A stretch of DNA of 64,000 nucleotides from an uncultured Planctomycetales bacterium (GTDB lineage: Bacteria > Omnitrophota > Gorgyraeia > Zapsychrales > Fredricksoniimonadaceae). Made by a program: the position numbers and the translations under genes. Shown piece after piece: positions 5,086 through 22,543 of the stretch; position 1 is the first letter of the stretch; the number at the start of each line of letters is the position of its first letter. The DNA lies in assembly GCA_964583975.1 (NCBI GenBank), contig CAZOXU010000003.1, positions 7,805 through 71,804 of the forward strand, in the 5' to 3' direction. Below the pieces are notes generated by a model. That model did no database searches, was not told the origin of the DNA, and saw only the letters and a list, made by a program, of their open reading frames with translations.

Positions 5086-5109
5086 TTAAGCAATGTAATT
5101 AAGAGGGCT

Positions 5110-5420: not shown

Positions 5421-5507
5421 GCTGGGATGGCGGAACTGGTATACGCGCTGGTCTCAAAAACCAGTAGCTTCACGGCTGTGAGGGTTCGATTCCCTCTCCC
5501 AGCACCA
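5421..5507 (+). tRNA. tRNA-Leu (anticodon CAA), type II with long variable arm, CCA encoded
   Basis: GCTGGGATGGCGGAACTGGTATACGCGCTGGTCTCAAAAACCAGTAGCTTCACGGCTGTGAGGGTTCGATTCCCTCTCCCAGCACCA. D-arm GGCGGAA..GGTA.ACGC typical of Leu. Anticodon loop CTCAAAA. Confidence 0.8.
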
Positions 5508-5552
5508 ATAACCTTGGTTTTCATCTAAAAAAATGTTACACTTTTCTTAGAT

Positions 5553-5879: not shown

Positions 5880-5889
5880 TTAATTCTTT

Positions 5890-7874: not shown

Positions 7875-7876
7875 CT

Positions 7877-8707
7877 TTACTCCTGAATTGTTACCTTTGT
7901 TCCCATAGGTAGAAGATCAAAAAGCTCCTCGACATCCGCGTTGACCATACGCACGCAACCTGCTGTAGCGTTTTCACCAATCATATCTGGATGAATAGTC
8001 CCATGAATACCATAATGCGGGTCAGTATCAAATCCCATCCAACGCGAGCCTAATTCATTTTCTGGACTCTCAGGTGGAACAGGTTGGCCGCCTGGCTTAA
8101 ACCAAACAGGGTTGGCAATCTTAGAGGCAATTTTAAAAACCCCTGTGGGAGTAGCATTGTCTTTTTTATCTTTGCCAGTCGACACCCGATAGATTTTCAC
8201 AACCTCATCATTGGATTTAAGAACCATGGTATTTTGTGATTTACTGACGAAAACGGAAAATGGAGCTTTCCAAATGCGTAAATTCTCACCAACCCTGATC
8301 ACATCACTTTTTAGATTGTTACTTCTTTTGATTAATTCCTTGGTTGTATTATATTTCTTGGAAAGTTTGCCTAAAGAATCTCCAGGCTGCACTTGATATA
8401 CTTCGGTTTGAGGGGTAGGGGTTTTAGAAAATATGATGCCGATATTTAGATCACCTAATCGCTTTTGGACATCTTCAATCTTATCGTAATCAGGATGTTC
8501 GGCAATAATTTTACTTAAGGCTTCTTTGACTTTTAATTCCTCACCCTGGGTTTCATACTGCTGGGCTTGATCTAATAATTCTCTGACAGGCACTGGCGCT
8601 TGAGAAGATAATGACGCTCCACCATGCTTTATGACGTTAGCAACAACAAGGCCAATGGTGGCCAGTAAAATAACCGCAACAATAATAATGATCCATTGTT
8701 TTTTCAC
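7877..8707 (-). CDS. LysM-domain L,D-transpeptidase (YkuD family)
   Basis: N-terminal TM/signal. LysM (YQVQPGDSLGKLSKKYNTTKELIKRSNNL). Catalytic HGT...ATAGCVRM. Confidence 0.8.
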   Translation of the reverse strand: MKKQWIIIIVAVILLATIGLVVANVIKHGGASLSSQAPVPVRELLDQAQQYETQGEELKVKEALSKIIAEHPDYDKIEDVQKRLGDLNIGIIFSKTPTPQTEVYQVQPGDSLGKLSKKYNTTKELIKRSNNLKSDVIRVGENLRIWKAPFSVFVSKSQNTMVLKSNDEVVKIYRVSTGKDKKDNATPTGVFKIASKIANPVWFKPGGQPVPPESPENELGSRWMGFDTDPHYGIHGTIHPDMIGENATAGCVRMVNADVEELFDLLPMGTKVTIQE

Positions 8708-8723
8708 AAGCGCCTCCTTGAAC

Positions 8724-9182
8724 TTAATACAAAATTAGGGTGCAAATGATTCCAAATACAAAACCTGCCAGAACCTGTATGGGGGTGTGTCCCACTAGTT
8801 CTATAAGTCTTTTTTCTTGAAGATGCCCCATCCAAATGTCATCCATCATTTTATTAAGAATGGTAGCTTGTTGGCCAGCTGCTCGCCTGACTCCCTGCGC
8901 ATCAAACATAATGACAAGGGCAAACACAGAAGATATGGCGAACATAGCTCCATCAAATCCATCTTGTAACCCTACCGCTGTAGCCAAGGCTGTTACTCCA
9001 GCCGCATGACTCGAAGGCATTCCTCCTGTACCGATAAACCAACGAAAATTAAACTTCTTCTCCCTAATAACCCCCAAAATAACCTTGGTTGATTGAGCAA
9101 ATATCCAAACCAGCAGGGTTATGAAGAATATACGATTATGTAGGAATTCTCTGGCAAAGGAATGTGTTGTCTGCAGTTCCAT
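8724..9182 (-). CDS. divergent PAP2-family membrane protein (DUF212/YuiD-like)
   Basis: 152 aa, multi-TM. GGMPSSHAA phosphatase motif 2. Confidence 0.6.
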   Translation of the reverse strand: MELQTTHSFAREFLHNRIFFITLLVWIFAQSTKVILGVIREKKFNFRWFIGTGGMPSSHAAGVTALATAVGLQDGFDGAMFAISSVFALVIMFDAQGVRRAAGQQATILNKMMDDIWMGHLQEKRLIELVGHTPIQVLAGFVFGIICTLILY

Positions 9183-9383
9183 TAGTGCAATCTAATAAAA
9201 TATGACCCTTTCGCTTACGCTTCAGGGTTAACACTGAGTTTATTCGAAAATGTTGACGATAATACCTTAATTTGTTAGCCTGTATTATATCTTTGCTCCC
9301 CCAAAAAGCAAGGATTGGTTTCTTCAAGCTCCCCCCTTGTAATCCTAAAATTATCTAACTCCCCGTAAAATCTGAGGTTACGT

Positions 9384-10895
9384 ATGCTTGCCAAATCTTT
9401 TAGTTTTGCCCTGGCCGGGCTCGAGGCCTACTGCGTTACCATTGAAACCGACATAACCGATGGTCTTCCCCTAGTAACCATCGTTGGCCTGCCTGATAAT
9501 GCAGTCCGAGAAAGCCGCGAGCGAGTCAGGCTGGCCATTAAAAACAGCTCCTTGGGCTTTCCATCAGGACACCTAACCATCAATCTTGCCCCAGCTGATA
9601 TTAAAAAAGAAGGTCCGTCGTTTGATGTGGCCATTGCCTTAAGCGTGCTAGCCAGCAATGAACAAATCTCCTATGAATCCTTACGCCATTACGTTTTTTT
9701 AGGTGAGCTAGCACTCGATGGCAGCATCCGACCTATCAACGGAGCCCTTCCTATTGCCTTGGCCTGTGATCCTAAAGTATTTAAAGGTCTGATCGTTCCT
9801 GCAGCCAATGCCAAGGAAGCAGCCCTGGCTAATACGGTTAATATCTATGCTGCTAATTACCTTAAAGAAATTGTCCATTTTCTTTCTAACCCAGAGAGTA
9901 TAAAGCCAACCCCCTGCGAAGGAATAAATCTGCTTAATGAAAAAAGACGCTATCCCTTGGACTTTGCTGATGTCAAAGGCCAAATCCATGTCAAACGCGG
10001 TCTCGAAATTGCCGCGGCAGGCGGACACAACGTGCTAATGATCGGGCCACCAGGAAGCGGCAAAACCATGTTAGCCAAGCGCGTGCCCTCCATCTTACCT
10101 GATATGACCTTAAGTGAGGCCCTGGACATTACCAAGATCTATTCGGTGATGGGGCTTAACACCAAAGGCATTGTCACGGCTCGACCTTTTCGCTCGCCTC
10201 ATCACACAGCCTCGGATATTGCCTTGATTGGTGGCGGTTCAAACCCCAAACCCGGTGAAGTCAGCCTAGCCCATAACGGTGTTTTGTTTCTTGATGAATT
10301 AGGTGAATTCTCCAGGCATGTGCTGGAAGTTCTTCGCCAGCCCTTGGAAGATCATTGGGTAACCGTCTCCCGAGCCAGTCGAACGCTTCGCTTTCCAGCC
10401 GGCTTCATGCTGATTGCCGCAATGAACCCGTGTTTTTGTGGGTGGCTCATGAGCTCCCAGAGACGATGTCAATGCTCGCCAAACGATATCCAAAAATATC
10501 TCGCCAAAATTTCTGGCCCCATGCTTGATCGCATTGACCTACATCTACAAGTGCCAGGCCTTAAAACGCATGAGATGCTCCATGCTCCTTTAACTGAAAG
10601 TTCTAGTGAGATTAAACAACGGACAGCTAAGGCACGAAAGTTACAACAACGGCGTTTTAACAACACTAACGCCCACATGAATTCCGAACAATTAAAACAA
10701 TATTGTGCGCTTGATGAAGCTGCTCGCGAGCTCCTTAAAAAAGCGATTGATACGCTAGGTCTTTCGGCCCGCGCCCACGATAAGATTCTAAGAGTGGCTC
10801 GAACAATTGCGGATTTAGCAGACAGAGAAAACATCCAGCCCGAACATATTGCAGAGGCGATCAGCTATCGGGCGTTGGATAGGATACATCAATGA
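9384..10895 (+). CDS. comM: YifB/ComM family Mg-chelatase-like AAA+ ATPase
   Basis: 503 aa. N-terminal Lon-like domain. Walker A GPPGSGKT. C-terminal helical domain. Confidence 0.85.
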   Translation: MLAKSFSFALAGLEAYCVTIETDITDGLPLVTIVGLPDNAVRESRERVRLAIKNSSLGFPSGHLTINLAPADIKKEGPSFDVAIALSVLASNEQISYESLRHYVFLGELALDGSIRPINGALPIALACDPKVFKGLIVPAANAKEAALANTVNIYAANYLKEIVHFLSNPESIKPTPCEGINLLNEKRRYPLDFADVKGQIHVKRGLEIAAAGGHNVLMIGPPGSGKTMLAKRVPSILPDMTLSEALDITKIYSVMGLNTKGIVTARPFRSPHHTASDIALIGGGSNPKPGEVSLAHNGVLFLDELGEFSRHVLEVLRQPLEDHWVTVSRASRTLRFPAGFMLIAAMNPCFCGWLMSSQRRCQCSPNDIQKYLAKISGPMLDRIDLHLQVPGLKTHEMLHAPLTESSSEIKQRTAKARKLQQRRFNNTNAHMNSEQLKQYCALDEAARELLKKAIDTLGLSARAHDKILRVARTIADLADRENIQPEHIAEAISYRALDRIHQ

Positions 10896-11353
10896 GAAAA
10901 CCTTCTCGGAAGAATTTAAGATTGAAAAATTGGGATTATTCTTCGGCAGGATATTATTTTGTAACCATATGCACACAAAATCGTTTTCCATATTTAAAAA
11001 ATCCTGACATAAACAATATACTCCATCAAACGTGGTGTGAATTAAAACAGAAATATGACAATATTGTGTTGGATGAATTTATCATCCTGCCCAATCATAT
11101 TCATGGAATCATTATCATCGTAGGGGCGGACCTATGTGTCCGCCCACAATTAGGGTCGACCCCTACGTTGGGCGAAATGATCCGTTGGTTCAAAACAATG
11201 ACCACAAATTATTTTATTCACGGGGTAAATAAATCTGGATGGAAACCATTCTTGGGTAGATTATGGCAACGCAATTATTACGAACATATCATCCGTAATG
11301 AACGATCTCTTTACGACATGCGACGATATATCACACATAATCATATGGAATAA
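10892..11353 (+). CDS. REP-associated tyrosine transposase (RAYT; IS200/IS605-like Y1 HUH transposase)
   Basis: 153 aa. HUH motif LPNHIHGII. Catalytic Tyr region WQRNYYEHIIRN. ATG overlaps comM stop (ATGA). Confidence 0.7.
   Translation: MRKPSRKNLRLKNWDYSSAGYYFVTICTQNRFPYLKNPDINNILHQTWCELKQKYDNIVLDEFIILPNHIHGIIIIVGADLCVRPQLGSTPTLGEMIRWFKTMTTNYFIHGVNKSGWKPFLGRLWQRNYYEHIIRNERSLYDMRRYITHNHME
11120..11166. repeat. REP-like palindrome GTAGGGGCGGAC..GTCCGCCC..GGGTCGACCCCTAC embedded in-frame in the RAYT gene
   Basis: Perfect outer inverted repeat GTAGGGG/CCCCTAC and inner GGGCGGAC/GTCCGCCC. Encodes VGADLCVRPQLGSTPT, inserted between the HUH motif and the downstream conserved helix. Confidence 0.6.
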
Positions 11354-11368
11354 TTACCGTTGAAACAA

Positions 11369-11404
11369 AAAAGAGGTTATCGGTATTAGCGATAACCTCT
11401 TTTT
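11369..11404. terminator. bidirectional intrinsic terminator hairpin (AAGAGGTTATCG-GTATTAG-CGATAACCTCTT + T-run)
   Basis: 12-bp perfect stem flanked by A-run and T-run, between convergent genes (RAYT on plus, coiled-coil gene on minus). Confidence 0.7.
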
Positions 11405-11419
11405 AATTATAACCGTCTT

Positions 11420-14392
11420 CTACGAAGCGTTTTGAAGAGATTGGATCTTTTGTGTTAAATCTTGGACTTTTTTATTAAGAACCGTGATTTGCTTGCTCAG
11501 TTCTTGGGCTTGATCATTTTTATTCTTGGCTGCATCGCGGGCTTGTTCTACTTCTTTTCTAGCATCAGCCAGTTGTTGCTTTAAATCTTCTAAATTTCTC
11601 TGGTCTTTTTGAGCTGGCGTTAAGGCAACAGGCTTATTTTTTTCTTCTAACTGCATCTTAAGCCGGGCAATCTGCTTATCCTTGTAATAAATATCTTCCA
11701 TCAATTTTTCTATTTTAGCTTGGGTCTCTTTTAATTCTTTTTGGCGCACGCTATTGGTTAATTTATCTTGTTTCAACTGTTCAATTTGTTCATTGCTTTG
11801 CTTAAGGGAAGACTTTAATTCCTCAACTTCCTTAGTCGCTGACTTTACAAAAAGCTTGGTCTGTTCTACCTCAGACTGATCTACTGAATTCTTTAAACGT
11901 GTTTCTGCAACGGTCAACTTTTCTTGCAACTCTTCTAAACGCTTAGTTTGCTTGGTTAACTCTTCTTGGCTCACCGAATTCTTTAATTTTTGCTGAGCTG
12001 CTGCAAGTTTGTCACCAATCTCACTGAGTTCTGCTTTTTTATTGTCTAATGAAGCATTCAATAACGCCAACTGCTGATTCTTATCGCGTAATTCTTGAGT
12101 TTTTTCTGAAGATTTCTTCTCTAGTTCAAAGAAGAAAGCTTGTACCTTCTTTAAATCTTTGGTTTTTTGATCAATATCATCTTGGGCGGTCTGCAAATCA
12201 CCTTGCAACTTATTGATTTCCAAAACTCTGTCCTTGATTTGCACGTCTTTATCATCCATTTTTTGTTGATAAACATCTAACATGCTCTCTAACTGAGTCG
12301 CCTTGTCTCGGCTTTCTTGTAATTGTTTTTGCAAGCTTTCAACTTCTCCCTGCTTGTTGCCAACTTCCTTTTTAAAATTCTCCAGCTGACTATCATTTTT
12401 ACTGTTTAAATCTTGCCAATACACAACCGTCTTTTGCAATTCGTTTCGATAACGATCTGTATTATCTCGGTGCTTGATAGCTAATTGCAGCAGCAAATCG
12501 CATTTCTCAGCAGCTAAATCTTCTAAAATGCGATACTTAGATAGTAATTGATCTTCTAATTCCCCGCGTTCTTTCAGGCGTTGATATTCACTGACAATGC
12601 CTTTTAGATTTTCAATTTGTGCAGATAGACCTTTAATATTCTCCTGAAGATGTTTAACCATCCCCATATAGCTAGACTTGTCTTGCACATCTTTTTGTAG
12701 TTTAGATATCTGTGTATCTTTCTCTTGCAGATCTTTATCTTTAGCAGCCATTTGTCCTGTTAAGGATTTAATGGTCATTTGCTGCTTCTTATTTTGCTCT
12801 TGATATTCTTTTAAATCTGCTTGGGCTTGTTGCAATTGCTGTTTTAATTCGACAATGTTGCCCTTAATCCGGGTAAGATCTTCTAAATCTTTAAGCGCAG
12901 GTCTTTCTTGAAGTTGTTTTTGTAAGTCAACAACCATAGTGCCTTTTTCCTGCAAATCTTTTTCCTGAGAAGTTATTTGAGCGCTCAGGGCTTTAATGGT
13001 TGCTGTTTGCTTCTTAATATGCTCTTGATATTCCTTAAGATCTTCTTGTGAGTTTTGCAATTGATATGTTAAGGCTGCAATATCGCCTTTGACCTTAATT
13101 AAATCATTTTCTTGTGCATCCACATCTGCCGCGCGTCTTTTAGCAGCAGCTAACTGTCCTTTAAGATCAACGATCTTTTCACGAATCTGATCAAATCCCT
13201 GATTATAGTTGTCATAATTAGCACGCAGGTCTGTAACTTTCTGTCGGGTTTGAGTAATATCTTCATTAAGCACATTCATTAACTGTTGTTGGTTGACAAG
13301 TTCTTTTTCTTTGCCGGCAATCGCCTTGTCTTTTTCTTCAATTTGTCGTTGGGCTACAGACAATTGATCTTGGGCAGCTGCCAAATCTTTTTTAATTTGG
13401 ACCACATTGGCTGGCTCGGGTTGATTGGCTAATTGCTCATCTTTCTGGGCAATGATCTTGTCTTTATCAGCGATTTGCTTTTGTGCTTGCTGTAATTGTT
13501 CACGGGCAGCAGCTAAATCCCCTTTATACTGGGCGATCATCTGGTCTTTTTCGAGTAACAACTTTTCTAGCTCGCTAATTTTCTGGTCTTTTAAAGCTAA
13601 GGAAGCCTGATACTCACCAACACTTTTGATTTGAGCTTTTAAATTAGCAATGGTCTGTGCAACTTCTTCATTATCCGTATTTTTTGCGTTGTTATTTACG
13701 ACAGGTGCCGGCGATGCTTTGGATTGTTCGTAAAGCGCCTGTAATTTCTGCAATTGTTCCTTGGTATTGGCTAACTGTTCTTTATAGGAAGCAAGTTCTT
13801 GATACTTTTCTGAAAGAAATTTAATTTTAGAAACCAACTCTTCTTTTTGATTATCTAATCCTTCAACTAATTGCTGGGTCTGGGTGTTTGCAGTGGCTGG
13901 CAAATTCTTTAAACCTTCAACGTCCTTGGTTAACTTAATGACTTCATCAAATAAGTGTTCTAGCTTATCAATGCGAGCTCTTAAAAACGCTGTTTCTTCA
14001 TTACGGTGCATCATGCTGCGGTTACGTTCATCTAATTTTTGGCTATACTTCTCAAGTATTTCTTTTAGTTGGCTTAAGGTATTAACGGCAATGACCCAAT
14101 CGCCTGGTTTTCTCACCCCCGCATCGCGCACCACATTCTGCTGCATTCTTGAAATTGTTCCGATCAAAGCTGAATTTTCTTGGGCCAATTCACGAGCAAT
14201 AAGTTCTTCATCACGAAGGGTTCGTTCTTGATTAAGGGCATCTTTTTTTAACTGAACAACTTCATTATTTAACTCAAGAGCTCGCACATAAATCGGTGGA
14301 GCTTGGATAATCTCTGTAGCCGCCAAAACATTGGCAGGCACTGTATTTAACAAAAATAAAACTGATAGGGTACTATGAACAATTCTCTTCAT
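11420..14392 (-). CDS. secreted giant coiled-coil protein (990 aa)
   Basis: Signal peptide MKRIVHSTLSVLFLLNTVPANVLAA. Almost entirely heptad-like E/K/Q/L-rich sequence. Confidence 0.7.
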   Translation of the reverse strand: MKRIVHSTLSVLFLLNTVPANVLAATEIIQAPPIYVRALELNNEVVQLKKDALNQERTLRDEELIARELAQENSALIGTISRMQQNVVRDAGVRKPGDWVIAVNTLSQLKEILEKYSQKLDERNRSMMHRNEETAFLRARIDKLEHLFDEVIKLTKDVEGLKNLPATANTQTQQLVEGLDNQKEELVSKIKFLSEKYQELASYKEQLANTKEQLQKLQALYEQSKASPAPVVNNNAKNTDNEEVAQTIANLKAQIKSVGEYQASLALKDQKISELEKLLLEKDQMIAQYKGDLAAAREQLQQAQKQIADKDKIIAQKDEQLANQPEPANVVQIKKDLAAAQDQLSVAQRQIEEKDKAIAGKEKELVNQQQLMNVLNEDITQTRQKVTDLRANYDNYNQGFDQIREKIVDLKGQLAAAKRRAADVDAQENDLIKVKGDIAALTYQLQNSQEDLKEYQEHIKKQTATIKALSAQITSQEKDLQEKGTMVVDLQKQLQERPALKDLEDLTRIKGNIVELKQQLQQAQADLKEYQEQNKKQQMTIKSLTGQMAAKDKDLQEKDTQISKLQKDVQDKSSYMGMVKHLQENIKGLSAQIENLKGIVSEYQRLKERGELEDQLLSKYRILEDLAAEKCDLLLQLAIKHRDNTDRYRNELQKTVVYWQDLNSKNDSQLENFKKEVGNKQGEVESLQKQLQESRDKATQLESMLDVYQQKMDDKDVQIKDRVLEINKLQGDLQTAQDDIDQKTKDLKKVQAFFFELEKKSSEKTQELRDKNQQLALLNASLDNKKAELSEIGDKLAAAQQKLKNSVSQEELTKQTKRLEELQEKLTVAETRLKNSVDQSEVEQTKLFVKSATKEVEELKSSLKQSNEQIEQLKQDKLTNSVRQKELKETQAKIEKLMEDIYYKDKQIARLKMQLEEKNKPVALTPAQKDQRNLEDLKQQLADARKEVEQARDAAKNKNDQAQELSKQITVLNKKVQDLTQKIQSLQNAS

Positions 14393-14403
14393 GGGGATTA
14401 TCC

Positions 14404-14904
14404 TTATTGTGTGAGGTCTTTTTGTCCTTCGGCGATCTGACTCCTTAAGGCAGCTACTTGACTTTTAAGTTCACCAATGGATCGATCAGCTTCTTGAAGA
14501 TCATTTTTCAAATCTTCATTATTGTAGGTAGATTTAGTTACTTCTTGGGTTGCTTCTTTTTTAGGTTGTTCTACTATCTTCTTAACCACTCCCTTTGGGG
14601 TTACCATAATCGGTGCTGAAGCAATCACAGGATTAGTAGGCATAGGTGGAATCACAATTTGCTGTCCCTTGGCATTCAATTTCTTAGCATAGCTTCTGGC
14701 TGCGGAATTGGCTGGATCCATGGCTAGTATTCTCGAGAATATGGTAGCAGCTTGGGCGTAATCACCTCGATCATACACTGCCTGAGCATACTGGTAAAGT
14801 TGGGTGACTGCCAAGGATCGCATCGAACCTTGGTCTTGAGCAGCATTAACTGTAAAAGGAATTAATAAAAGGATAAGGACGATGATGGGAAATATTTTTT
14901 TCAT
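14404..14904 (-). CDS. secreted TPR-like / coiled-coil protein (166 aa)
   Basis: Signal peptide MKKIFPIIVLILLLIPFTVNA. TPR-like YAQAVYDRGDYAQAATIFSRILAMDP. 11 nt upstream of the coiled-coil gene (probable operon). Confidence 0.6.
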   Translation of the reverse strand: MKKIFPIIVLILLLIPFTVNAAQDQGSMRSLAVTQLYQYAQAVYDRGDYAQAATIFSRILAMDPANSAARSYAKKLNAKGQQIVIPPMPTNPVIASAPIMVTPKGVVKKIVEQPKKEATQEVTKSTYNNEDLKNDLQEADRSIGELKSQVAALRSQIAEGQKDLTQ

Positions 14905-15012
14905 AATTATAAACCGTTGTAAATAAATAACTTATGTTATTCTTGGTTAATGAGAGTTAGTTGATGTTTTTATCAAACTTGAGGAAGTATAACATCCCTG
15001 ATAGCCAAATGC

Positions 15013-15060
15013 AAGTAGGGGCCCTGTGTGGTCTTCCACTATAAAGATAAGCCCTACGGC
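15013..15060. repeat. REP element (GTAGGGGCC...GCCCTAC)
   Basis: gtaggggccctgtgtggtcttccactataaagataagccctacgg. Same GTAGGGGC/GCCCTAC termini as the mutS-flanking REPs. Confidence 0.5.
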
Positions 15061-15064
15061 AGGA

Positions 15065-17839
15065 TTATTTTCTATTTTTATCTTTTGAAGTATCCACCTT
15101 CTCACTCATTTTCTTTTTAATCTTGGTAAAACTAACTGTGTTCGTCTTGGTGCTTTTTTGCACAATCTTTTCTGGAGACTTGATGGGTTGTGGTGAAGCA
15201 TTTTTAAGAGTACCCGTGCCAGGAGTAGTCGAACCAGAAGTAAAGCTTGCTCCAGAGCTTGATCCACCCGATTCTGGGCCAGGACCAGAGCCAGAACCAG
15301 AACCCGAGCCAGAACTTGAACCAGAACCCGAGCTAGAACTTGAACCAGAACCCGAGCCTGAGCCTCCCGAAGGATTGCTAATCACATAATTAAAGCTTTG
15401 CGGTGTTGTTCCTGCCCATGTCCTTATCTTAATATTGTAGGTGGTCGCAGGAGCATAATTGGGCGCATGTAAAACAATGCTCGTTGGAGAGACTGAGTGA
15501 ACATATAGCATGTCAAGGTTATATTGCCGGCCCATGTAAGTCAATAACACATTGTTCCAATTATTAGTATATTCACTTAAATTTCCCAAATTCACTCCTG
15601 TGATCGTGATATAAGCTTCGACACCTGCAACGCCTGTCGTAGAGCTTATACTTGTCAAAGATGGTAAATAAGCGGGGTCTTGATTAACCACAAGATTGAC
15701 TGCCGCACTTATTTGTCCACCTGGATTTTCAACAAAAACATTATATGTCCCAGCAAAAAACTGGGCTGGGAACATGAAATCTATTCGGCCAGGATTAACA
15801 AAAGTCACCTTATTACTATCAACATAAACTGAACCCACATTCGGCAAAGTAAGTTTTACCTTGGCTGCAGGATCTAAATTAGCACCCTCAATATGAATAG
15901 GGATTTCCTGAAGACCATTTTGAATATTATTAGGAACAAGACCATTGATGGTTGGTGGAGTACTGCCAGAAGAACTATACTCATACACACCCGCATCAGG
16001 CAAACCAACACGTGGGTTCCCCTTCAAATCAGTCGCAGGAGCCACAGCACTTAAACCCACATCAATATTGGGACTGGTAGGCATTGGAGCAAAGTTATAA
16101 AGCCAGCTCGTCATTCGATAGTTTATATTGAAATCTGCAAATTGCGGATCACCCAAGACATTGTTTCTAAATTGAGGTCGGTAGGATTGATTCTGCATAT
16201 CAGCTAAATCATATCCGTAAGCATTCGGACACCACGAGAACGTATGCGGACCGCTTGTAGCCCCCACCCCCGTATCATTACAGACTAACATGCCTGCTTG
16301 GTCATGTCCGACGGCATGAGAGTCTCGATAAAAAACATTATTTTCTATATGAAATTCTTGCAAATCATTAACAAATCCCAATCCATACCCAAAACGAATT
16401 GGATAATTACTTTGCGAGCGCATAATATTATTCTTTATTTCAAAATTTTCGTGAGAATAAGGAATTGGCAGTGCTTCTCCATGTTGAATATTGATAGCCG
16501 AATATTCCCCCCCGCCACCATTTTGCCCATTTGTCCCACTTAAACCCAAAAGAATATTATTAATGATCTTAATATTCTTAAGTGGCCGCTGCATAGACAT
16601 TCCATCTTCATTCCAAAAAGTAAGAGCATTTCTTCCAACGTTAAAGATTAAGTTGTTTTCAATAAGCATATCTTGAGTTCCATTTTTAACCTCAATGCCT
16701 TCCCAGGCAGTTCCCCAAATCATATTTCCCTTGATAATAACATTTGTGCCATCGCGCAAATGAATACCGTGACCTCCTTCGTGACCACAATAATTTAATC
16801 TGCTATTTTCAACTTTAAAATATGTGTCGGTGGCATTTAAAGGATGACCAAAGGCAGGGTACATATTTCCATTTTTATATAAACAATGCTCGTAGCCTGT
16901 GTCATGAATAGTAATATTATCTAATGTAACGTAATGACGTTGATATCCCCCTGTCCAAAACATGCCCCATCTGTCACCATTTCTAAATTCACTGTTTTTT
17001 ATGGTGACATGAGAAAAATTATCCCCCATTAATGCCACCCGATAAACCAAATGCTGCGAATCATACCTGCCATCAAATTCAAAACCATCAATAATGACAT
17101 GTTGTGTGGTGGGTGTAATACCAAATATATTATCTACGTTTGCTAATCCTGGCTTAAAAATGACCCGCTTGCCTGGTTCATTCATAATAACAATGGGCCT
17201 CTCTTGTGTTCCCTGATAACCTACCGAATAAGTTCCAACTCCTGGTGCCCAACCGTAATGAGAAAGAGTATTTAATCCCCCAGAAGTGTTTGTAACAAAA
17301 TATGTCCCTTCCAGATAAACTATAACATCTCCTGGTAACACGACAGCAGGCCCATAATAGGGTGTAGGAACGCTATTTAAATATGGCAGGTTAATATTAT
17401 TTGGTTGTGCCGTGCTATTATTCCCATTGGGTGAAACAAAGAAAACATTACCGATTTCATGGGTATAACCAATATCATGCAAATAATTTTTAAAATTCTG
17501 AATGTTGGTAAATGAACCATAGCGAGCAGTTACTGAAGCCGGTGTATTAATAGTCGAATCATTATCATTAGCATCAGGAGCCATGTGCTCGGGATTAGGA
17601 TTGACATTGAAAAGCGGAGTAATCACACTCCCATCTCGATTACCTGTGCTGATATATCCATCGCCATCATTATCTGTATTAAAAACATCGGTATGCCCTT
17701 TTCCTAAATAGGGGAATTGCGTAGCGAAAGCCTTCTTAGCCCCACCCATACTTAAAAGAAGTGCAGCTAAAATGATCAGTAGATATATTTTTATATTGGT
17801 ATTATTTTGGATATGAAATATTGCCATAGTTCTGTACAT
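15065..17839 (-). CDS. secreted right-handed parallel beta-helix repeat protein with C-terminal Gly/Ser linker and Lys-rich tail
   Basis: 924 aa. N-terminal signal/TM. Many NxxxG/asparagine-ladder beta-helix repeats (NNLIFNVGRNALTFWNEDG...IINNILLG). 60-aa SG(S/G)n linker. KKxK tail. Confidence 0.7.
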   Translation of the reverse strand: MYRTMAIFHIQNNTNIKIYLLIILAALLLSMGGAKKAFATQFPYLGKGHTDVFNTDNDGDGYISTGNRDGSVITPLFNVNPNPEHMAPDANDNDSTINTPASVTARYGSFTNIQNFKNYLHDIGYTHEIGNVFFVSPNGNNSTAQPNNINLPYLNSVPTPYYGPAVVLPGDVIVYLEGTYFVTNTSGGLNTLSHYGWAPGVGTYSVGYQGTQERPIVIMNEPGKRVIFKPGLANVDNIFGITPTTQHVIIDGFEFDGRYDSQHLVYRVALMGDNFSHVTIKNSEFRNGDRWGMFWTGGYQRHYVTLDNITIHDTGYEHCLYKNGNMYPAFGHPLNATDTYFKVENSRLNYCGHEGGHGIHLRDGTNVIIKGNMIWGTAWEGIEVKNGTQDMLIENNLIFNVGRNALTFWNEDGMSMQRPLKNIKIINNILLGLSGTNGQNGGGGEYSAINIQHGEALPIPYSHENFEIKNNIMRSQSNYPIRFGYGLGFVNDLQEFHIENNVFYRDSHAVGHDQAGMLVCNDTGVGATSGPHTFSWCPNAYGYDLADMQNQSYRPQFRNNVLGDPQFADFNINYRMTSWLYNFAPMPTSPNIDVGLSAVAPATDLKGNPRVGLPDAGVYEYSSSGSTPPTINGLVPNNIQNGLQEIPIHIEGANLDPAAKVKLTLPNVGSVYVDSNKVTFVNPGRIDFMFPAQFFAGTYNVFVENPGGQISAAVNLVVNQDPAYLPSLTSISSTTGVAGVEAYITITGVNLGNLSEYTNNWNNVLLTYMGRQYNLDMLYVHSVSPTSIVLHAPNYAPATTYNIKIRTWAGTTPQSFNYVISNPSGGSGSGSGSSSSSGSGSSSGSGSGSGSGPGPESGGSSSGASFTSGSTTPGTGTLKNASPQPIKSPEKIVQKSTKTNTVSFTKIKKKMSEKVDTSKDKNRK
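15255..15370. repeat. GGYTCNGAR-type simple repeat encoding (SGSG)n linker
   Basis: ccagaacccgagccagaacttgaaccagaa... repeated units. Antisense reads PEPEPE. Confidence 0.7.
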
Positions 17840-18072
17840 ATTTTTGCCTCCTAAAACCTTTTTAATTCAAGACGACTCTAGTTCAAATATATCATCTCAA
17901 GGAGTGAATAACAAGGCTTTGAACCCCCAACTGAGAAAACGCTTCCTGATAGATAAAATATATGTAATATGCTCATATTAAATAAGTTATAGAAAGTACT
18001 AAAATATCTGAAATGTTAAATTCATATAAAGATTTAATTTATCGAGAAAATGATCCGTTCTTTTTCTTGCAT

Positions 18073-18135
18073 GTAGGGGCCGGCCTCTGTGCCTGCCCTT
18101 TTGATTATTGGGCAACCACGGAGGGTTGCCCCTAC
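18073..18135. repeat. REP doublet (REPIN-like): GTAGGGGCCGGCCTCTGTGCCTGCCC - spacer - GGGCAACCACGGAGGGTTGCCCCTAC
   Basis: Two REP units in inverted orientation upstream of mutS. Confidence 0.65.
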
Positions 18136-18183
18136 ATTTTTCTAATTTACCTAAATTAATTTCTATGTTATAAAGATGCGCTT

Positions 18184-20700
18184 ATGGAAACAACCCCCAT
18201 GCTTAAGCAGTACCATGAAATCAAATCCCGACATAAAGATGCGATCGTTTTTTTTCGTCTAGGTGATTTTTATGAAATGTTCTTTGATGATGCCAAGGAT
18301 GCTTCGTCTATTCTTGATCTGGTCTTAACTTCTCGCGGGCAGGATGCCAGTCGAGTTCCCATGTGTGGCATACCTTATCATGCCTGCGAAGGGTATATCT
18401 CCAAACTGATCAAGGCTGGCCGTAAAATTGCCATCTGTGAGCAAGTGGAAGACCCTGCTGTGGCCAAGGGCATTGTCCGACGCGATGTGATTCGGGTCAT
18501 TTCAGCTGGCACATATCTAGATGAAGAAACCCGGACCCGCTACCTGCTTTCTCTATATATAGGCAAAAATGGGCTAGGCTTTAGCTTTTGCGATAATACC
18601 AGTGGCGTTCTCTGGGCCAATGAAGTAACTAATTCCAGGATCGCCTTAGAATCAATCTCTAAACTGGCCATTTACGAATGTGTTTATCCAGCAGCCCAGG
18701 AAGAACAGATTCGTTCTTTATTTGCCCACCCTCTTTTGAAACTTAAGAATGTTACCCTAAGCCCCATGGAAGACTGGCATTTTCATTTTGATGCCGCTAA
18801 CCAAAATCTCTGCGCCCACTTTGAAGTATTAAATCTCAATGGTTTTGGATTAGAAAATAAGAATTCGGCCATTGCCTGCGCCGGTGCTCTCTTAGAATAC
18901 TTACGCACAGCCAACAAAACTCCTTTGAAACATATTCACCGCATGGCTCTTTACACGGCCGATGATTATGTTTTTATCTCTCCTGCAGCACACTATGGAC
19001 TAGAACTTGAAGAAGTTTTAAAGACCTTGGATCTAACGCAGACATCTATGGGGCATCGCTTATTTCGATTTTGGATGTTTCATCCGCTTAAGAATATCCA
19101 GGCGATTGCTGATCGTCAAAGCGCCATCCAAACACTCAATAAGGCAAAAACCCGTAATAAAATCAACGAATGCTTGCAAAATATGCCTGATTTGGAAAAA
19201 GCACTATCAAGAATCAGCTGTGGCTGCTGCAGCATCAAAGATATCTTAAACCTACGTAATGGACTTTTACGTGGGCCGCTAATCCAAGAAAACCTGACAC
19301 CCATGAATCATCCTCTGTTAATGGTGCATGATTTAACGGCCTTACGCGATCTTTTAACACGCACCATCGATCCTGAAACTCCTTTAGCCAAACCTGAAGG
19401 AAAAATCATTCTACCGGGCATCGATAAAGAATTAGATGAATTACGCAATCTACAAGATAACAGCCGCACCTGGCTAGCTAATTATCAGGCTGAAGAAATT
19501 CGACGCACAGGGATCAATTCTTTAAAAGTTGGTTTTAATAATGTCTTTGGCTATTACCTGGAAATTACCAAGACCCATCAAAAGTCTGCCCCGGCTAATT
19601 ACATCCGTAAACAAACCCTGGCAAATGCTGAACGCTATATCACCCCTGAACTTAAAGAATATGAGGAGAAATTCCTTACAGCCCAGGATAAAATTTTAAG
19701 TATTGAACGGCGAATCCTTAATTCCATAGAAAAAGCCATTCTTTTAGAAGTCAATCAGCTACATGCCTATGCTTCACAAATTGCTCACCTGGACTGTCTG
19801 TTGTCTCTTTGCACTTTGAGTCAACGGCCAGGTTATGTCTTTGCTCAAGTCAATGATTCCATGACCATTGATATCCGAGATGGTCGACATCCAGTGGTGG
19901 AAAAGACCGTAACTGAAAATTTTATTGCCAATGACACCTTGCTCGATGATACCGATAATCATTTGATCATCTTAACCGGTCCTAATATGGCTGGCAAAAG
20001 TACCTACATTCGCCAGACGGCCATTTTAGTTCTAATGGCTCAGATGGGCGCACCGATTCCGGCTGGCTCGGCCACGATTGGTTTGGTTGATAAAATCTTC
20101 ACCCGCATCGGCGCTCATGATGATATTGCCAAAAACCAAAGCACATTCATGGTGGAAATGACCGAGGCTGCTGATATTCTCAATAATCTGACAGCCCGCT
20201 CGCTAGTAATTCTTGATGAAATCGGACGTGGAACTTCCACCAGCGATGGGCTCTCCTTGGCCTGGGCCTTGGCAGAACATTTCCAGAAGCAAAAAGCCCG
20301 CACGTTATTTGCCACCCATTTTCATGAACTAGTGGCTCTAGCCGATAGACTCCCTGGAATTAAAAATTACAACGTGGCTGTGAAAGAATGGCGAGATCAA
20401 ATTATATTTATGCATAAGATTGTGGCTGGTGGCTGTGATGATTCCTACGGAATTTATGTGGCTAAACTGGCTGGTATTCCAGAAAGCGTGATCAAGCGTT
20501 CAAAAGCAATCTTAAGTGAATTAGAACTTGGGAGCACAACGCCAATAAAACGGCATGAACGACAGATTGATCTGTTTACACCTCATTCTGATCCTGTATT
20601 GGAAGATTTGCGCTCGGTTGTGGAAGCCATTGATATCAACAATATAACACCGCTAGATGCGTTAAAGAAATTGGATGAGATAAAACGCAAATTAACGTAG
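18184..20700 (+). CDS. mutS: DNA mismatch repair protein MutS
   Basis: 838 aa. N-terminal mismatch-binding domain. Walker A GPNMAGKST. Walker B/DE, C-terminal HTH. Stop codon TAG forms the first bases of the downstream REP. Confidence 0.9.
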   Translation: METTPMLKQYHEIKSRHKDAIVFFRLGDFYEMFFDDAKDASSILDLVLTSRGQDASRVPMCGIPYHACEGYISKLIKAGRKIAICEQVEDPAVAKGIVRRDVIRVISAGTYLDEETRTRYLLSLYIGKNGLGFSFCDNTSGVLWANEVTNSRIALESISKLAIYECVYPAAQEEQIRSLFAHPLLKLKNVTLSPMEDWHFHFDAANQNLCAHFEVLNLNGFGLENKNSAIACAGALLEYLRTANKTPLKHIHRMALYTADDYVFISPAAHYGLELEEVLKTLDLTQTSMGHRLFRFWMFHPLKNIQAIADRQSAIQTLNKAKTRNKINECLQNMPDLEKALSRISCGCCSIKDILNLRNGLLRGPLIQENLTPMNHPLLMVHDLTALRDLLTRTIDPETPLAKPEGKIILPGIDKELDELRNLQDNSRTWLANYQAEEIRRTGINSLKVGFNNVFGYYLEITKTHQKSAPANYIRKQTLANAERYITPELKEYEEKFLTAQDKILSIERRILNSIEKAILLEVNQLHAYASQIAHLDCLLSLCTLSQRPGYVFAQVNDSMTIDIRDGRHPVVEKTVTENFIANDTLLDDTDNHLIILTGPNMAGKSTYIRQTAILVLMAQMGAPIPAGSATIGLVDKIFTRIGAHDDIAKNQSTFMVEMTEAADILNNLTARSLVILDEIGRGTSTSDGLSLAWALAEHFQKQKARTLFATHFHELVALADRLPGIKNYNVAVKEWRDQIIFMHKIVAGGCDDSYGIYVAKLAGIPESVIKRSKAILSELELGSTTPIKRHERQIDLFTPHSDPVLEDLRSVVEAIDINNITPLDALKKLDEIKRKLT

Positions 20701-20759
20701 GGGCAACCCCCCGTGGTTGCCCAATAATTAAAAGGGCAGACACAGGGGCCTGCCCCTAC
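20697..20759. repeat. REP doublet, reverse-complement arrangement of the upstream doublet
   Basis: GTAGGGGCAACCCCCCGTGGTTGCCC - spacer - GGGCAGACACAGGGGCCTGCCCCTAC. Together with 18073..18135 forms an inverted pair bracketing mutS. Confidence 0.65.
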
Positions 20760-20773: not shown

Positions 20774-22543
20774 ATGCCCGTAAAAATATTACCCCCCGAA
20801 GTCATTGCTAAAATCGCCGCTGGTGAAGTGGTTGAACGTCCAGCTTCGGTAGTCAAAGAATTGATTGAAAACTCAATCGATGCCGGGGCTAAAGCAATCG
20901 AGATCCATTTAAAAGATGCTGGTAAGGAATTGATCCATATTAAAGACGATGGCTGCGGGATCGCTAAAGAAGATCTTGAGCAAATTTTTCAGCGTCATGC
21001 CACAAGCAAACTTCGATCGATTGATGATTTAGAAAAGCTCGCTTCGATGGGATTTCGTGGTGAAGCTCTTTACTCTGTTGCTGCTGTCTCAGACATCATC
21101 TTACGCAGTAAGGTCACTTCCAAGGACGGCTGGGAAATACATTTACAAGGCAGCAAGCGCCTAGAGCTCAAACCAACTGCTCTGTCTGGCCCTGGCACAG
21201 AAATCAAGATCACCCAGCTTTTTTTTAATACACCGGCCCGTCGTAAATTTCTTAAAAGCACTACCTCTGAAATGCAGCAGATTTTTAATGTGGTTTTCCC
21301 TTATACGCTTTTGTATCCCCAAAAACATTTTGTGTTAACTCACGCTGGTAAATCTATGTTGGATGTCAGGCCTGCTATCTGCGCTGTTGATCGTATGGCT
21401 GAAGCTCTCAATCTGGAGAGCCGTGATTTGATCGAAGCCACCCAGGATTTTGCTGATCTCAATGCCCAGGTGCGCATGCTCTTAAGCAATATCAATGTGC
21501 AGCGCCCACGCCGGGATTTGCAGTTTATCTTTGTGAATAATCGCCCTGTAGAGAACAAAAACTTGAGCTTTAACATTAATGATATTTATCGTTTGATTCT
21601 GCCGCCTGGGGTTTATCCGGCCTTTGTCTTAGATATACAAATTGATCCAGCAGAAGTTGATGTGAATATTCACCCAACCAAACGTGAGGTGCGTATTCGC
21701 CAAGAATCTAGATTAGTCTCGTTTGTACGTCATATGACTGAGTACACGCTTCTGCAGCAAGGACAAGCTAAGGCACTCACCAGTTTACCAGTTAATCCTT
21801 CGTGGATCAGTGATACTACACCAGCCCAGAACATTACGTCCCCTGAACAAATCGTCTTTGATCCCACAGGAGAACAAGCTTCCTTTTCACCCAGCTCTTA
21901 CTCAACGTCTGGGCGTAACTTTGAAGCCAGTCACTGGCAAAGCGCTGTTCCTCAGGACCTTTTTAAATCATCGGATAATTTACACAACAAATTTGCGAAA
22001 GCGCGCTACGTAGGGCAATTCATCAACAAATATCTGATTTTTGAAGCTGATCAATCGTTATTTTTAGTCGACCAGCATGCAGCGCAAGAACGTATTATGT
22101 TTGAAAAATTCCAGAATCAAATTGAACAAGGAAAGATAGAAATTCAACCGCTTCTAACACCCGTTTTGCTTAAACTGTCTGCTTCTGAAAAAATCGCTTG
22201 GGAAGAGTCAGGTGAGAAATTAAAAGAAGTAGGGATTGAAACGTCGCTGTTTGATGACGATACACTGGCCATCCAAACTCAGCCTGTGCTTCTTAAAAAG
22301 ATTGATATTACTGTTCGAACACTTCTTGCTGGCGATGCTATTAGCCGCTGTGATCGTGCCACTATCGCTAGGCGTGCTTGCAAGGCCTCTATTGTCACAG
22401 GTGATCGACTGGATAGCACGCAGGCTGATTATCAACGTCGCCAACTTCTAGCCTGTCACGATCCTTTCACCTGTCCACACGGCCGACCCACGGTTGTAGA
22501 AATCAAAGAATCCTTTCTGGATCGACAGTTCTTACGGACATAA
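20774..22543 (+). CDS. mutL: DNA mismatch repair protein MutL
   Basis: 589 aa. GHKL ATPase N-terminus (ELIENSIDAGA, DDGCGI). C-terminal dimerisation domain; no endonuclease DQHA(X)2E(X)4E motif seen, though DQHAAQERIMFE is present, so it may be endonuclease-proficient. Confidence 0.85.
   Translation: MPVKILPPEVIAKIAAGEVVERPASVVKELIENSIDAGAKAIEIHLKDAGKELIHIKDDGCGIAKEDLEQIFQRHATSKLRSIDDLEKLASMGFRGEALYSVAAVSDIILRSKVTSKDGWEIHLQGSKRLELKPTALSGPGTEIKITQLFFNTPARRKFLKSTTSEMQQIFNVVFPYTLLYPQKHFVLTHAGKSMLDVRPAICAVDRMAEALNLESRDLIEATQDFADLNAQVRMLLSNINVQRPRRDLQFIFVNNRPVENKNLSFNINDIYRLILPPGVYPAFVLDIQIDPAEVDVNIHPTKREVRIRQESRLVSFVRHMTEYTLLQQGQAKALTSLPVNPSWISDTTPAQNITSPEQIVFDPTGEQASFSPSSYSTSGRNFEASHWQSAVPQDLFKSSDNLHNKFAKARYVGQFINKYLIFEADQSLFLVDQHAAQERIMFEKFQNQIEQGKIEIQPLLTPVLLKLSASEKIAWEESGEKLKEVGIETSLFDDDTLAIQTQPVLLKKIDITVRTLLAGDAISRCDRATIARRACKASIVTGDRLDSTQADYQRRQLLACHDPFTCPHGRPTVVEIKESFLDRQFLRT

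Follow-up and report, generated by a model that had tools for sequence, protein, structure and literature searches.

REPIN-like doublets on both sides of mutS in an Omnitrophota genome and their probable origin by independent insertion

Two REP doublets around an intact mutS

Does a mismatch-repair gene that lies between two inverted copies of a hairpin repeat, one of which supplies its stop codon, carry a genetic device, or has it merely been caught between mobile elements? The question arises in the window, the whole 64,000-nt stretch of Omnitrophota DNA analyzed here, for which an earlier note had proposed that recombination between the repeats acts as a mutator switch. We consider it quite probable that the doublets are REPIN-like elements that landed independently in tolerant spots, and that the bracketing of mutS is incidental, with no device acting on the gene.

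Doublet A (18073-18135) reads GTAGGGGCCGGCCTCTGTGCCTGCCC-TTTTGATTATT-GGGCAACCACGGAGGGTTGCCCCTAC, that is, a CGGC/AGGC-type unit, an 11-nt AT spacer and an AACC-type unit. Doublet B (20697-20759), with the structure GTAGGGGCAACCCCCCGTGGTTGCCC-AATAATTAAAA-GGGCAGACACAGGGGCCTGCCCCTAC, is of the same REPIN family but oppositely oriented, the AACC-type unit coming first, and occupies the junction between mutS and mutL. Neither near-palindromic feature is assigned to a strand, each being a head-to-head dimer of GTAG-tagged REP hairpins with the GTAG outside and an 11-nt spacer between the units. Both doublets lie exactly where the earlier note had placed them, and their mutual reverse complementarity, which it had also described, amounts to 58 identical positions out of 63 (10 of 11 in the spacer) when doublet A is compared with the reverse complement of doublet B by our own count. 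In a repeat search, A and B came out as the longest inverted pair between 9 and 24 kb, the 66-nt arms showing 91% complementarity. The pattern GTAGGGGC-N14-GCCC with an 8-bp stem is matched by all four A/B units and by a unit within the transposase gene described below. In the window, GTAGGGGC occurs 8 times versus 0.72 expected, a number reached in none of 100 shuffles, and the full REP-unit pattern is found 6 times versus 1.44 expected; the copies across these 64 kb comprise two intact doublets, one decayed doublet and one intragenic copy. Two further GTAGGGGC 8-mers, at 40461 and 41724, fall inside a giant gene; neither forms a hairpin, and we attribute both to chance or to coding sequence.

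As RNA, each doublet folds into a single long hairpin, at -40.6 kcal/mol for A (z -6.1) and -40.0 kcal/mol for B (z -6.0); folded as DNA, doublet A reaches -19.9 kcal/mol. Rfam matched a doublet with microRNA precursor models alone, all below threshold, which is attributable to a generic long hairpin. Together with the dimer architecture and with empty sites in relatives (see below), the single-hairpin fold bears out the earlier description of the repeats as REPIN-like, and we assign doublets A and B to this non-autonomous mobile repeat class, associated with RAYT (TnpA_REP) Y1 HUH transposases. With GTAG-REP head-to-head dimers (Di Nocera et al. 2013, PMC3733652) and REPINs (Bertels and Rainey 2011, PMC3116915, PMC3337134) they share a GC-rich palindrome whose foot carries GTAG, two inverted units with GTAG outside that fold as one long hairpin, a heterodimeric build in which two stem types are joined by a short, conserved spacer, a location by ORF 3′ ends where TAG is used as stop, and presence or absence at orthologous sites between relatives. 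The host, in contrast, belongs to a phylum outside those surveys.

The bracketed gene mutS (18184-20700, + strand; 838 aa, NCBIfam MutS 919 bits) is intact and contains all five MutS domains. Its final codons are AAA TTA ACG TAG, with the TAG formed by bases 2-4 of the doublet B GTAG, so that the stop does fall within the REP, as had been noticed earlier; the MutS C-terminus KRKLT* nevertheless equals in length and residues that of lineage L124, where the stop is TGA. Likewise intact, mutL (20774-22543, + strand) begins 73 nt 3′ of mutS. Between doublet A and the mutS ATG, and hence inside the A-B bracketed segment, lies a promoter-like element (18146-18174, + strand; TTTACC, 17 nt, TG-T-TATAAA), whose -35-like hexamer is located 10 nt downstream of doublet A and whose extended -10-like motif spans 18166-18174. 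The sequence TGYTATAAA is conserved upstream of mutS in five lineages (the window, L124, L121, L208 and L129) and, judged by sequence, is a putative promoter; a consensus promoter scan did not list it because that scan accepts only -10 hexamers with T in position 6. The doublet B hairpin begins 1 nt ahead of the mutS stop and is followed on the + strand by CGAATTGG. It thus lacks the sense-strand U-tract that, next to a GC-rich hairpin, characterizes an intrinsic terminator, and transcription may therefore read through into mutL.

Empty sites in relatives and the borders of a 3.1-kb insertion

Comparison with related lineages separates the two doublets. The mutS-mutL gap of 73 nt in the window contrasts with 7, 14, 2, 15, 2, and 16 nt in P0002, P0005, P0008, P0004, P0010, and P0012, respectively, and the junction measures just 2-16 nt in seven related lineages, indicating that doublet B is a lineage-specific insertion. 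Relatives with an empty mutS-mutL junction and an empty site between the divergent promoters upstream of mutS are both found. Order and orientation of mutS and mutL are the same in 11 of 11 related lineages, represented by about 16 contigs. In L208, another member of Omnitrophota, a REP dimer of a different subtype occupies the identical position at the mutS stop codon, with a gap of likewise 73 nt, which could mean target preference or selection instead of neutrality. GTAG REPs are located at mutS borders in L129, L153, and L196/L199 as well. The closest relatives are P0002 and P0003, at 87% identity.

Doublet A forms the right terminus of a 3.1-kb insertion (15015-18135, no strand assigned), which begins with GTAGGGGC and finishes with GCCCCTAC according to both alignment and direct reading against L124. 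For the latter, L124 positions 9930-9965 were compared with window positions 15005-15020 and 18130-18150. The insertion is lineage-specific and separates two divergent promoter-like blocks whose distance in L124 is only 8 nt. Its left terminus is a decayed doublet (15015-15058, no strand assigned; GTAGGGGC...GCCCTAC), which kept the GTAGGGGC head and the GCCCTAC tail and lost the stable fold (z -0.9). This element had been listed as a single REP at 15013..15060; it is indeed REP-related, yet a decayed doublet and not a single unit. It lies 6 nt past the stop of a 924-aa gene, directly adjoining the -35-like hexamer in the promoter-like element of a small TPR gene.

The cargo of the insertion is this beta-helix/TIG-domain gene (15065-17839, - strand; 924 aa, Pfam Beta_helix and TIG), which is bracketed by REP elements just as mutS is. 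The gene is missing at the orthologous position in L121, L124, L125, L208, L209, and the P0010 contig. The P0003 contig does contain it, and the flanking gaps there of 121 and 208 nt, compared with 160 and 344 nt here by length alone, hint at a beta-helix gene with fewer or no doublets. A homologue search with the 924-aa protein yielded three distant matches with a best identity of 37%, a small number that is probably due to the low-complexity tail of the protein. At the inter-promoter site of L208, we found unrelated GC-rich palindromes, suggesting that this spot is generally permissive.

A RAYT-type transposase gene and REP units across phyla

A candidate source of mobility is encoded upstream of the insertion. 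The gene at 10892-11353 (+ strand, 153 aa), the start of which overlaps the comM stop (ATGA), matches Pfam Y1_Tnp with 29.6 bits (cut-off 23); NCBIfam REP_Tyr_transpos scores 66.9 bits and thereby misses its cut-off of 80, and the IS200 model scores far lower (20.7 bits). Residues H69, H71, and Y146 are invariant in the family alignment, and the family profile retrieves E. coli TnpA_REP (4ER8) as its sole match in the PDB (E 4.6e-6; E 0.05 with the single sequence). W125, Q126, and R135 align with W94, Q95, and R104 of 4ER8, whose roles in GTAG contact are taken from PMC6006769. The protein stops 7 residues after the catalytic Tyr and has no C-terminal extension. Located upstream, the gene ends 6.7 kb from doublet A, in line with the RAYT at 7 kb that the earlier note had reported, and it is absent from the orthologous junction in L124 and the P0010 contig.

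The gene itself harbors a REP, again as previously claimed: an in-frame doublet at 11120-11167 (+ strand; GTAGGGGCGGACCTATGTGTCCGCCC-ACAATTA-GGGTCGACCCCTAC) encodes VGADLCVRPQLGSTPT directly after HIHGIIII, the HUH motif, in a hypervariable insertion region of the family. RAYT homologues display a hypervariable REP-encoded region at the corresponding place, and such an in-frame doublet inside the gene is a hallmark of TnpA_REP subclass 2.4 (PMC6006769). We assign the open reading frame to the RAYT-type Y1 transposases and describe it, from its sequence features, as apparently subclass-2.4-like, a likeness judged from the published description. Subclass 2.4 (Quentin et al. 2018, PMC6006769) is equivalent to RAYT group 4 (Bertels et al. 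2017, PMC5581495), with which the gene has in common the Y1 HUH core, the lack of a C-terminal extension, a patchy distribution over multiple phyla, a REP stem foot of three G-C pairs, and "double-foot" GTAG...CTAC forms. It differs in being short, in scoring below the NCBIfam RAYT cut-off and in having no flanking REPs; GTAG REPs are found neither in 1-11119 nor in 11168-15014, and the hairpin downstream of the gene is an ordinary AT-rich, bidirectional terminator-like one. In comparison with E. coli TnpA_REP (PDB 4ER8) and its REP/BIME elements, HuH motif, catalytic Tyr and GTAG-contact residues are conserved, whereas overall sequence similarity is low, REP stems and loops differ, and the E. 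coli gene contains no internal REP. The stem of the internal REP is of GGAC type, unlike those of doublets A and B. GTAG REP dimers together with a subclass-2.4-like RAYT occur in Omnitrophota.

The REP unit and its dimer architecture are widespread, recurring in at least 120 loci from more than 15 phyla when genome contigs are scanned with a general doublet pattern. Among the 260 units listed from these at least 120 loci, stem positions 9-11/20-22 are paired in 94-96% by several pair types, and the unconstrained loop and stem positions C12, C13, G17, T18, and G19 are 87-92% conserved; the hairpin is hence conserved across phyla with compensatory changes. The combination of AACC-type and AGGC-type units was found at no fewer than 9 loci in several phyla, so that nearly the same two-unit heterodimer is shared by many phyla, and a spacer-specific pattern produced 0 matches in the metagenome contig collection. 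Locally, the stretch from the RAYT gene to the giant gene fully contains 5 intergenic gaps measuring 30 nt or more, and 3 of these carry a REP element.

The REPs at mutS borders in L208, L129, L153, and L196/L199 raised the idea of a recurrent hot spot at mutS. A MutS-based metagenome scan, which returned mostly distant MutS proteins (40-46% identity) and two Omnitrophota-like loci, was reused as a control set. In mutS-centered loci, 5 of 10 independent REP sites flank mutS, compared with about 4 expected from the usable gaps, and none of 128 doublets sampled REP-first adjoins mutS or mutL. The hot-spot idea was rejected on these counts.

Possible origins and roles of the bracketing doublets

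In the account that we favor, independent landing in tolerant spots, a RAYT would recognize the GTAG tag and GC-rich hairpin on single-stranded DNA, cut and rejoin it, and copies would survive just where they are harmless. Near mutS, only two places would be tolerant, the spacer of the upstream divergent promoters and the few bases that separate mutL from the mutS stop, and both would have been hit in this lineage by separate events. Doublet B presumably entered the mutS-mutL junction, where its GTAG supplies the stop and leaves the MutS C-terminus unaltered, while doublet A would have ended up at the right edge of the 3.1-kb beta-helix insertion, with a second, since decayed doublet at the left edge. 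Bracketing of mutS would then be a by-product of a local REP cluster near the RAYT gene. As a likely side effect, the -40 kcal/mol hairpin that doublet B forms in the mutS-mutL transcript may reduce translation of MutS, or else shield the mutS portion of the message and uncouple mutL. The enzyme encoded at 10892-11353 may itself have moved doublets A and B; its lack of flanking REPs, its different internal stem and its score below the NCBIfam RAYT cut-off count against a RAYT-based explanation. Moreover, group-4 RAYTs are reported to maintain only modest repeat populations, with about 14 occurrences of flanking 16-mers (PMC5581495), so that two doublets bracketing a single gene would be less expected under an even spread of insertions. 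GTAG REPs are mostly found just 3′ of ORF ends and often supply the TAG stop (PMC3733652), and a mutS between inverted repeats with its stop in a repeat is the expected footprint of a known mobile hairpin-repeat family.

The mutator switch, in which recombination between the inverted doublets would invert or disrupt the mutS segment and so toggle mismatch repair, is unsupported, and we regard it as very improbable, even though 63-nt inverted arms of 92% identity flank the gene and the gene of a Y1 HUH enzyme with the capacity to cleave and rejoin REP DNA lies at a distance of 6.7 kb. Inversion might orphan mutL by parting it from the mutS promoter-like element; that element lies within the segment, however, so it would move along with the gene and mutS would presumably not be silenced. 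RecA-dependent recombination usually needs roughly 23-27 bp of identity, and the longest perfect match between the A and B arms, 18 nt, counts against a recombinational switch. Furthermore, mutS and mutL are both intact, a single mutS orientation is seen in all 11 lineages, and the doublets stem from separate events, A belonging to an insertion that carries another gene. Since each doublet is near-palindromic, "inverted" designates a mere swap in the order of two unit types, and the relative orientation of two such independent insertions is left to chance, with even odds. Invertible promoter or gene switches such as fimS and hin-type invertons likewise have inverted repeats flanking a DNA segment, but here these are dispersed copies of a mobile family, the promoter-like element is internal, a second orientation was not seen, and no dedicated recombinase goes with them: a Pfam scan of 17 of 18 ORFs in the 23 kb outside the giant gene identified no invertase or site-specific recombinase, the Y1 RAYT being the sole DNA-breaking enzyme. 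Stops derived from GTAG REP ends, in turn, have already been described as common (PMC3733652). With respect to the eye-catching arrangement, our result is mostly a clean negative. That the hairpins represent ordinary terminators, or palindromes arisen by chance, is scarcely credible: a consensus scan does flag the second hairpin of A with a T-run (+ strand) and one B hairpin (- strand), leaving B unflagged on the + strand, yet the 58 shared bases include the spacer, the unit and dimer architecture recurs across phyla, orthologous sites are empty in relatives, and doublet B has no U-tract on the mutS sense strand. Integron attC sites were also considered and rejected, as no integrase is present and the attC core does not resemble the GTAG/CTAC feet.

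We judge it unlikely that the dimer at the mutS stop is a selected regulatory insert, kept for tuning expression of the mutS-mutL operon, possibly by making ribosomes stall at the stop, by shielding the 3′ end of the mutS message or by uncoupling mutL. A hairpin of -40 kcal/mol that starts 1 nt before the stop without a U-tract is compatible with such a role. Intercistronic REPs stabilize upstream mRNA in malE-malF, which by analogy also combines a strong hairpin with a two-gene unit, and a similar effect here is conceivable. According to work cited in PMC12306157, E. coli REPs can reduce translation when the distance to a stop codon is below 16 nt, and those within 15 nt resemble doublet B as strong hairpins at the stop of the upstream gene with no U-tract. 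The independent dimer of another subtype at the identical position in L208, again with a 73-nt gap, and the mutS-flanking GTAG REPs in L129, L153, and L196/L199 point in the same direction. On the other hand, seven related lineages have no REP dimer at the junction, mutS borders are not enriched in REPs per usable gap, and REP-first sampling did not place a single doublet by mutS or mutL. The coincidence at the stop codon is moreover expected from survivorship, because in a junction as short as 2-16 nt hardly any alternative insertion position would be viable.

Transposition of the 3.1 kb as a unit, either with the doublets as RAYT ends or as a circle integrated into a resident doublet, is improbable in our estimation, and the narrower claim that 15015-18135 is a REP-bounded cargo element mobilized or integrated via its doublets by a RAYT-type enzyme is likewise doubtful. 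RAYTs are usually seen as domesticated enzymes that move REPINs only; if the cargo reading were true, they could shuttle genes too, and exact bounding of a gene insertion by REP doublets would, if general, link these repeats to gene movement. A second copy of the cassette was not found, the cargo protein has only a few homologues, all of them distant, and the P0003 gap lengths hint that the gene can exist there with fewer or no doublets. Later entry of REPs into the two intergenic spaces newly created by the insertion would account for the same arrangement, and the palindromes of L208 suggest a permissive spot. In favor of cargo transposition, the edges of the insertion are exactly GTAGGGGC and GCCCCTAC, the 8 nt between the conserved promoter blocks have been replaced, and a full-length decayed doublet at one end faces an intact doublet at the other.

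REP doublets around mutS and a nearby RAYT gene

Two REP doublets lie on either side of mutS, doublet A at 18073-18135 and doublet B at 20697-20759, and the sequence read-out confirmed the coordinates in the earlier note exactly. The inverted relation described there likewise holds: 58 of 63 positions of A are identical to the reverse complement of B, 10 of the 11 spacer positions among them, and a repeat search returned A and B as the longest inverted pair of the region (66-nt arms, 91% complementary). Both doublets share the layout GTAG, hairpin, AT-rich 11-nt spacer, hairpin, CTAC. The stems of the two hairpins are unlike, one being GGGC(A/C)GGC...GCC(T/G)GCCC and the other GGGCAACC...GGTTGCCC. 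The GTAGGGGC head is present in eight copies in the window against 0.72 expected, a count reached by none of 100 shuffles, and the full unit pattern GTAGGGGC-N14-GCCC in six copies against 1.44 expected. A and B are head-to-head heterodimers of GTAG-tagged REPs in the terms of Di Nocera et al. (PMC3733652), and REPIN-like in those of Bertels and Rainey (PMC3337134). The predicted optimum of a single-stranded RNA or DNA doublet is one long hairpin, with the units paired with each other; predicted energies are -40.6 and -40.0 kcal/mol for the two RNA folds (z about -6; equally stable shuffles 0/200) and -19.9 to -23.8 kcal/mol for DNA. A REP element is also present where a single REP had been proposed (15013-15060), yet it is not single but a decayed doublet (15015-15058) that retains head and tail and has lost its fold (z -0.9).

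The 153-aa ORF at 10892-11353 passes the Pfam Y1_Tnp cut-off of 23 (29.6 bits). It scores 66.9 bits with NCBIfam REP_Tyr_transpos, below the model cut-off of 80 and well above the 20.7 bits of the IS200 model. Its family is very large (6,419 database proteins at E < 1e-10), several members being called RayT by their sources, and the sole solved-structure match of a profile of 20 members is E. coli TnpA_REP (4ER8, E 4.6e-6), to which the HuH motif, the WQ...EH...R segment and the YI..NP tyrosine all align. Immediately after the HUH motif, the family alignment displays a hypervariable region opening with a near-invariant VGA, in which runs such as VGADLCVRP and GQTRGSAPT are translated GTAG REP hairpins. 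In the window this region is an in-frame doublet (11120-11167), bearing out the reported REP copy inside the RAYT gene. The in-frame REP is a feature already in the literature: for Quentin et al. 2018 (PMC6006769), TnpA_REP subclass 2.4 is marked by REPs inserted in frame between HuH and Y, by REP stems built on three G-C pairs and by "double-foot" GTAG...CTAC forms. This subclass corresponds to the RAYTs that Bertels et al. 2017 place in group 4 (PMC6006769; PMC5581495).

The RAYT start and the comM stop share the sequence ATGA (10892-10895), and the RAYT gene is probably expressed by read-through from comM. The enzyme would recognise GTAG plus a hairpin on single-stranded DNA, as the E. coli enzyme does (PMC3733652). 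Two relatives, L124 and P0010, have the comM junction without RAYT, and L124 carries a "double-foot" REP (GTAGGGAACAGGCAAGCCTGCTCCCTAC, 6221-6248) exactly at this junction, which suggests an old REP/RAYT site at which the gene was gained or lost. In the P0012 lineage (L209 1226-3692; L210 1-2467), a large serine recombinase gene adjoins a shortened comM homologue of 290 aa, an arrangement suggestive of an integrative element within comM.

Separate insertions at the two borders of mutS

The mutS gene (18184-20700; 838 aa; NCBIfam MutS, 919 bits) is followed by mutL (20774-22543), and MutS homologues with 59-78% identity carry the source names Candidatus Omnitrophica or Omnitrophota. We compared the locus in ten further lineages, from gene tables or DNA. 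In all ten, mutS has the same direction as mutL and diverges from a small TPR-like gene, with a PilZ gene and a giant gene downstream on the opposite strand. The giant gene of the window is one ORF of 13,519 aa lying whole within it (23411-63970, minus strand), and the syntenic genes after mutL and PilZ in relatives have called products of 8,785 to 39,654 aa.

The mutS-mutL gap is mostly 2-16 nt in the compared lineages: 7 nt in P0002 (MutS identity 87%; gene table), 15 nt in P0004 (80%), 14 nt in P0005 (79%), 2 nt in P0008/L124 (79%) and in P0010 (77%; gene table), and 16 nt in P0012 (73%). It is 119 nt in P0003 (87%; gene table), 73 nt in P0009/L208 (78%), containing a different REP dimer, and 65 nt in L129 (65%), containing an unrelated palindrome; MutS identity is 66% in L128. 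In the window the gap is 73 nt, of which 63 are doublet B, which is thus a lineage-specific insertion. As the earlier note had it, the mutS stop lies inside the repeat, TAG being bases 2-4 of the doublet B GTAG. In L124 mutS ends K R K L T TGA, 2 nt before the mutL ATG, and in the window the same residues are followed by TAG-GGGC..., so that the MutS protein is unaltered and its stop now lies within the repeat. According to Di Nocera et al. [quoted passage not shown] Among 128 doublets of other genomes, 29 have a terminal GTAG whose TAG ends a frame of 100 codons or more; this crude count is an over-estimate in GC-rich DNA.

Doublet A is part of a different event. L124, L121 and L208 share two conserved blocks in the intergenic DNA from which the TPR-like gene and mutS diverge: GAAGTATA...GTCAAG, which on the opposite strand is TTGAC-N17-TATACT, and the mutS-proximal TGYTATAAA, preceded by TTTACC 17 nt before it in L124 and the window. 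The blocks are 8 nt apart in L124 (CAAG ctgaccaa ATTTTTGCC), whereas the matching flanks of the window are split at 15015 (CAAG|TAGGGGCC...) and 18135 (...GCCCCTAC|ATTTTTCTAATTTACC); we therefore read 15015-18135 as a single 3.1-kb insertion. It starts with the decayed doublet, ends with doublet A and carries as cargo a 924-aa beta-helix/TIG gene (15065-17839, minus strand). Six other lineages lack this gene here, and the P0003 contig alone shares it. The neighbouring TPR-like gene is orthologous (46% identity to its L124 counterpart). With doublets at both ends of the insertion, the beta-helix gene is REP-bracketed like mutS, and three consecutive intergenic regions around the two genes hold REP elements. 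A gene insertion exactly delimited by REP doublets is the one thread of some novelty. It is compatible with REP-mediated gene movement and equally with later colonisation, in which REP doublets entered the new intergenic space after the insertion.

The extended -10-like TGYTATAAA (TGTTATAAC in L129), at 18166-18174 in the window, is kept in five lineages (also L124, L121, L208 and L129) at 9-44 nt before the mutS ATG, though the intergenic DNA has otherwise diverged; it would make the mutS mRNA of the window nearly leaderless. Non-GTAG GC-rich palindromes occupy the same permissive site between the divergent promoters in L208 (9860-9945) and the other, the mutS-mutL gap, in L129 (8520-8575).

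Recombination, chance and insertion preference

The earlier note had proposed a mutator switch, with recombination between the inverted doublets inverting or disrupting mutS. This hypothesis finds no support. Efficient RecA-dependent exchange in E. coli requires about 23-27 bp, and exchange between diverged repeats is suppressed by mismatch repair itself; the longest perfect identity between the arms is 18 bases. Pfam scans of 17 of the 18 ORFs that the window has besides the giant gene detected neither an invertase nor any other site-specific recombinase, mutS and mutL are both intact, and mutS was inverted in none of the ten further lineages. Since each doublet approximates its own reverse complement (67% self-identity), "inverted" says no more than which of the two unit types comes first. 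Between doublet A and the mutS ATG, moreover, lies the conserved promoter-like element (18146-18174), which would travel with an inverting segment, so that inversion would at most orphan mutL. Rare RAYT- or REP-mediated rearrangements may nevertheless occur in the population.

Rather, the bracketing of mutS is incidental. Five gaps of 30 nt or longer are fully enclosed by the RAYT gene on one side and the giant gene on the other, and three of them contain REP elements. When three out of seven successive intergenic positions are filled, at least one adjacent pair is expected in about 70% of cases by our own arithmetic, so the bracket is not locally beyond chance. REPs do recur at mutS elsewhere: L129 has a GTAGGG-headed hairpin upstream of the gene and L153 one downstream, and in L196/L199, from an unrelated 60% GC genome with an Oscillospiraceae-type unit, GTAG REPs lie on both sides. 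In L196 (L199 likewise), these are a double-foot unit about 85 nt before the mutS ATG (5886-5915) and a head-to-head dimer 11 nt past the mutS TAA (8610-8714). In a second Omnitrophota lineage (L208 12553-12608, GCA_015233165.1), a REP dimer of another subtype with 9-bp stems and 3-nt loops takes the position of doublet B, and its GTAG provides the mutS TAG stop; the identical position is a mild curiosity. Independent REP sites flank mutS in 5 of 10 cases against about 4 expected (mutS-centred loci, few usable gaps), and none of the 128 doublets of a REP-first sample adjoins a mutS or mutL gene. On these counts, mutS borders as a general REP attractor were rejected. The best explanation of the recurrence is that insertions near mutS are harmless only in the inter-promoter spacer and at the stop-to-start junction, where REP copies would survive.

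Doublet B places a strong predicted hairpin, without a U-tract, in the mutS-mutL transcript from one base before the stop. Intercistronic REPs can shield upstream mRNA. By analogy, doublet B may lower MutS translation or shift the MutS:MutL ratio, and E. coli REPs less than 16 nt from a stop offer a precedent for lower translation (PMC12306157).

Spread of the REP class

The doublets were correctly observed; elements of this kind are known, and the phylum in which they occur here is little studied. A search for the doublet pattern in a single genome of each species yielded at least 120 loci, among them Chloroflexota, Acidobacteriota, Desulfobacterota, Planctomycetota, Bacteroidota, Bacillota, Omnitrophota, Thiomargarita and others, a spread in keeping with published accounts of subclass 2.4 as patchy and transfer-prone in its distribution. 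Across 260 units from the listed loci, the variable stem positions 9-11/20-22 are paired in 94-96%, by several pair types, and C12, C13, G17, T18 and G19, left free in the search pattern, are conserved at 87-92%; the loop consensus C-Y-N-Y-G-T is kept across phyla. The AACC-type plus AGGC-type heterodimer of the window recurs at no fewer than nine further loci of several phyla among the matches listed (L001-L120), with Geobacteraceae, Thermodesulfovibrionales, Phycisphaerae, Latescibacterota, Binatia, Gammaproteobacteria and others as hosts. In another Omnitrophota MAG, a doublet (L091 2350-2425) lies within a frame that runs for at least 2,566 codons without a stop and may be an in-frame REP dimer within a giant gene. 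Candidatus Thiomargarita nelsonii carries three identical tandem doublets with a period of 87 nt (L058 2573-2820).
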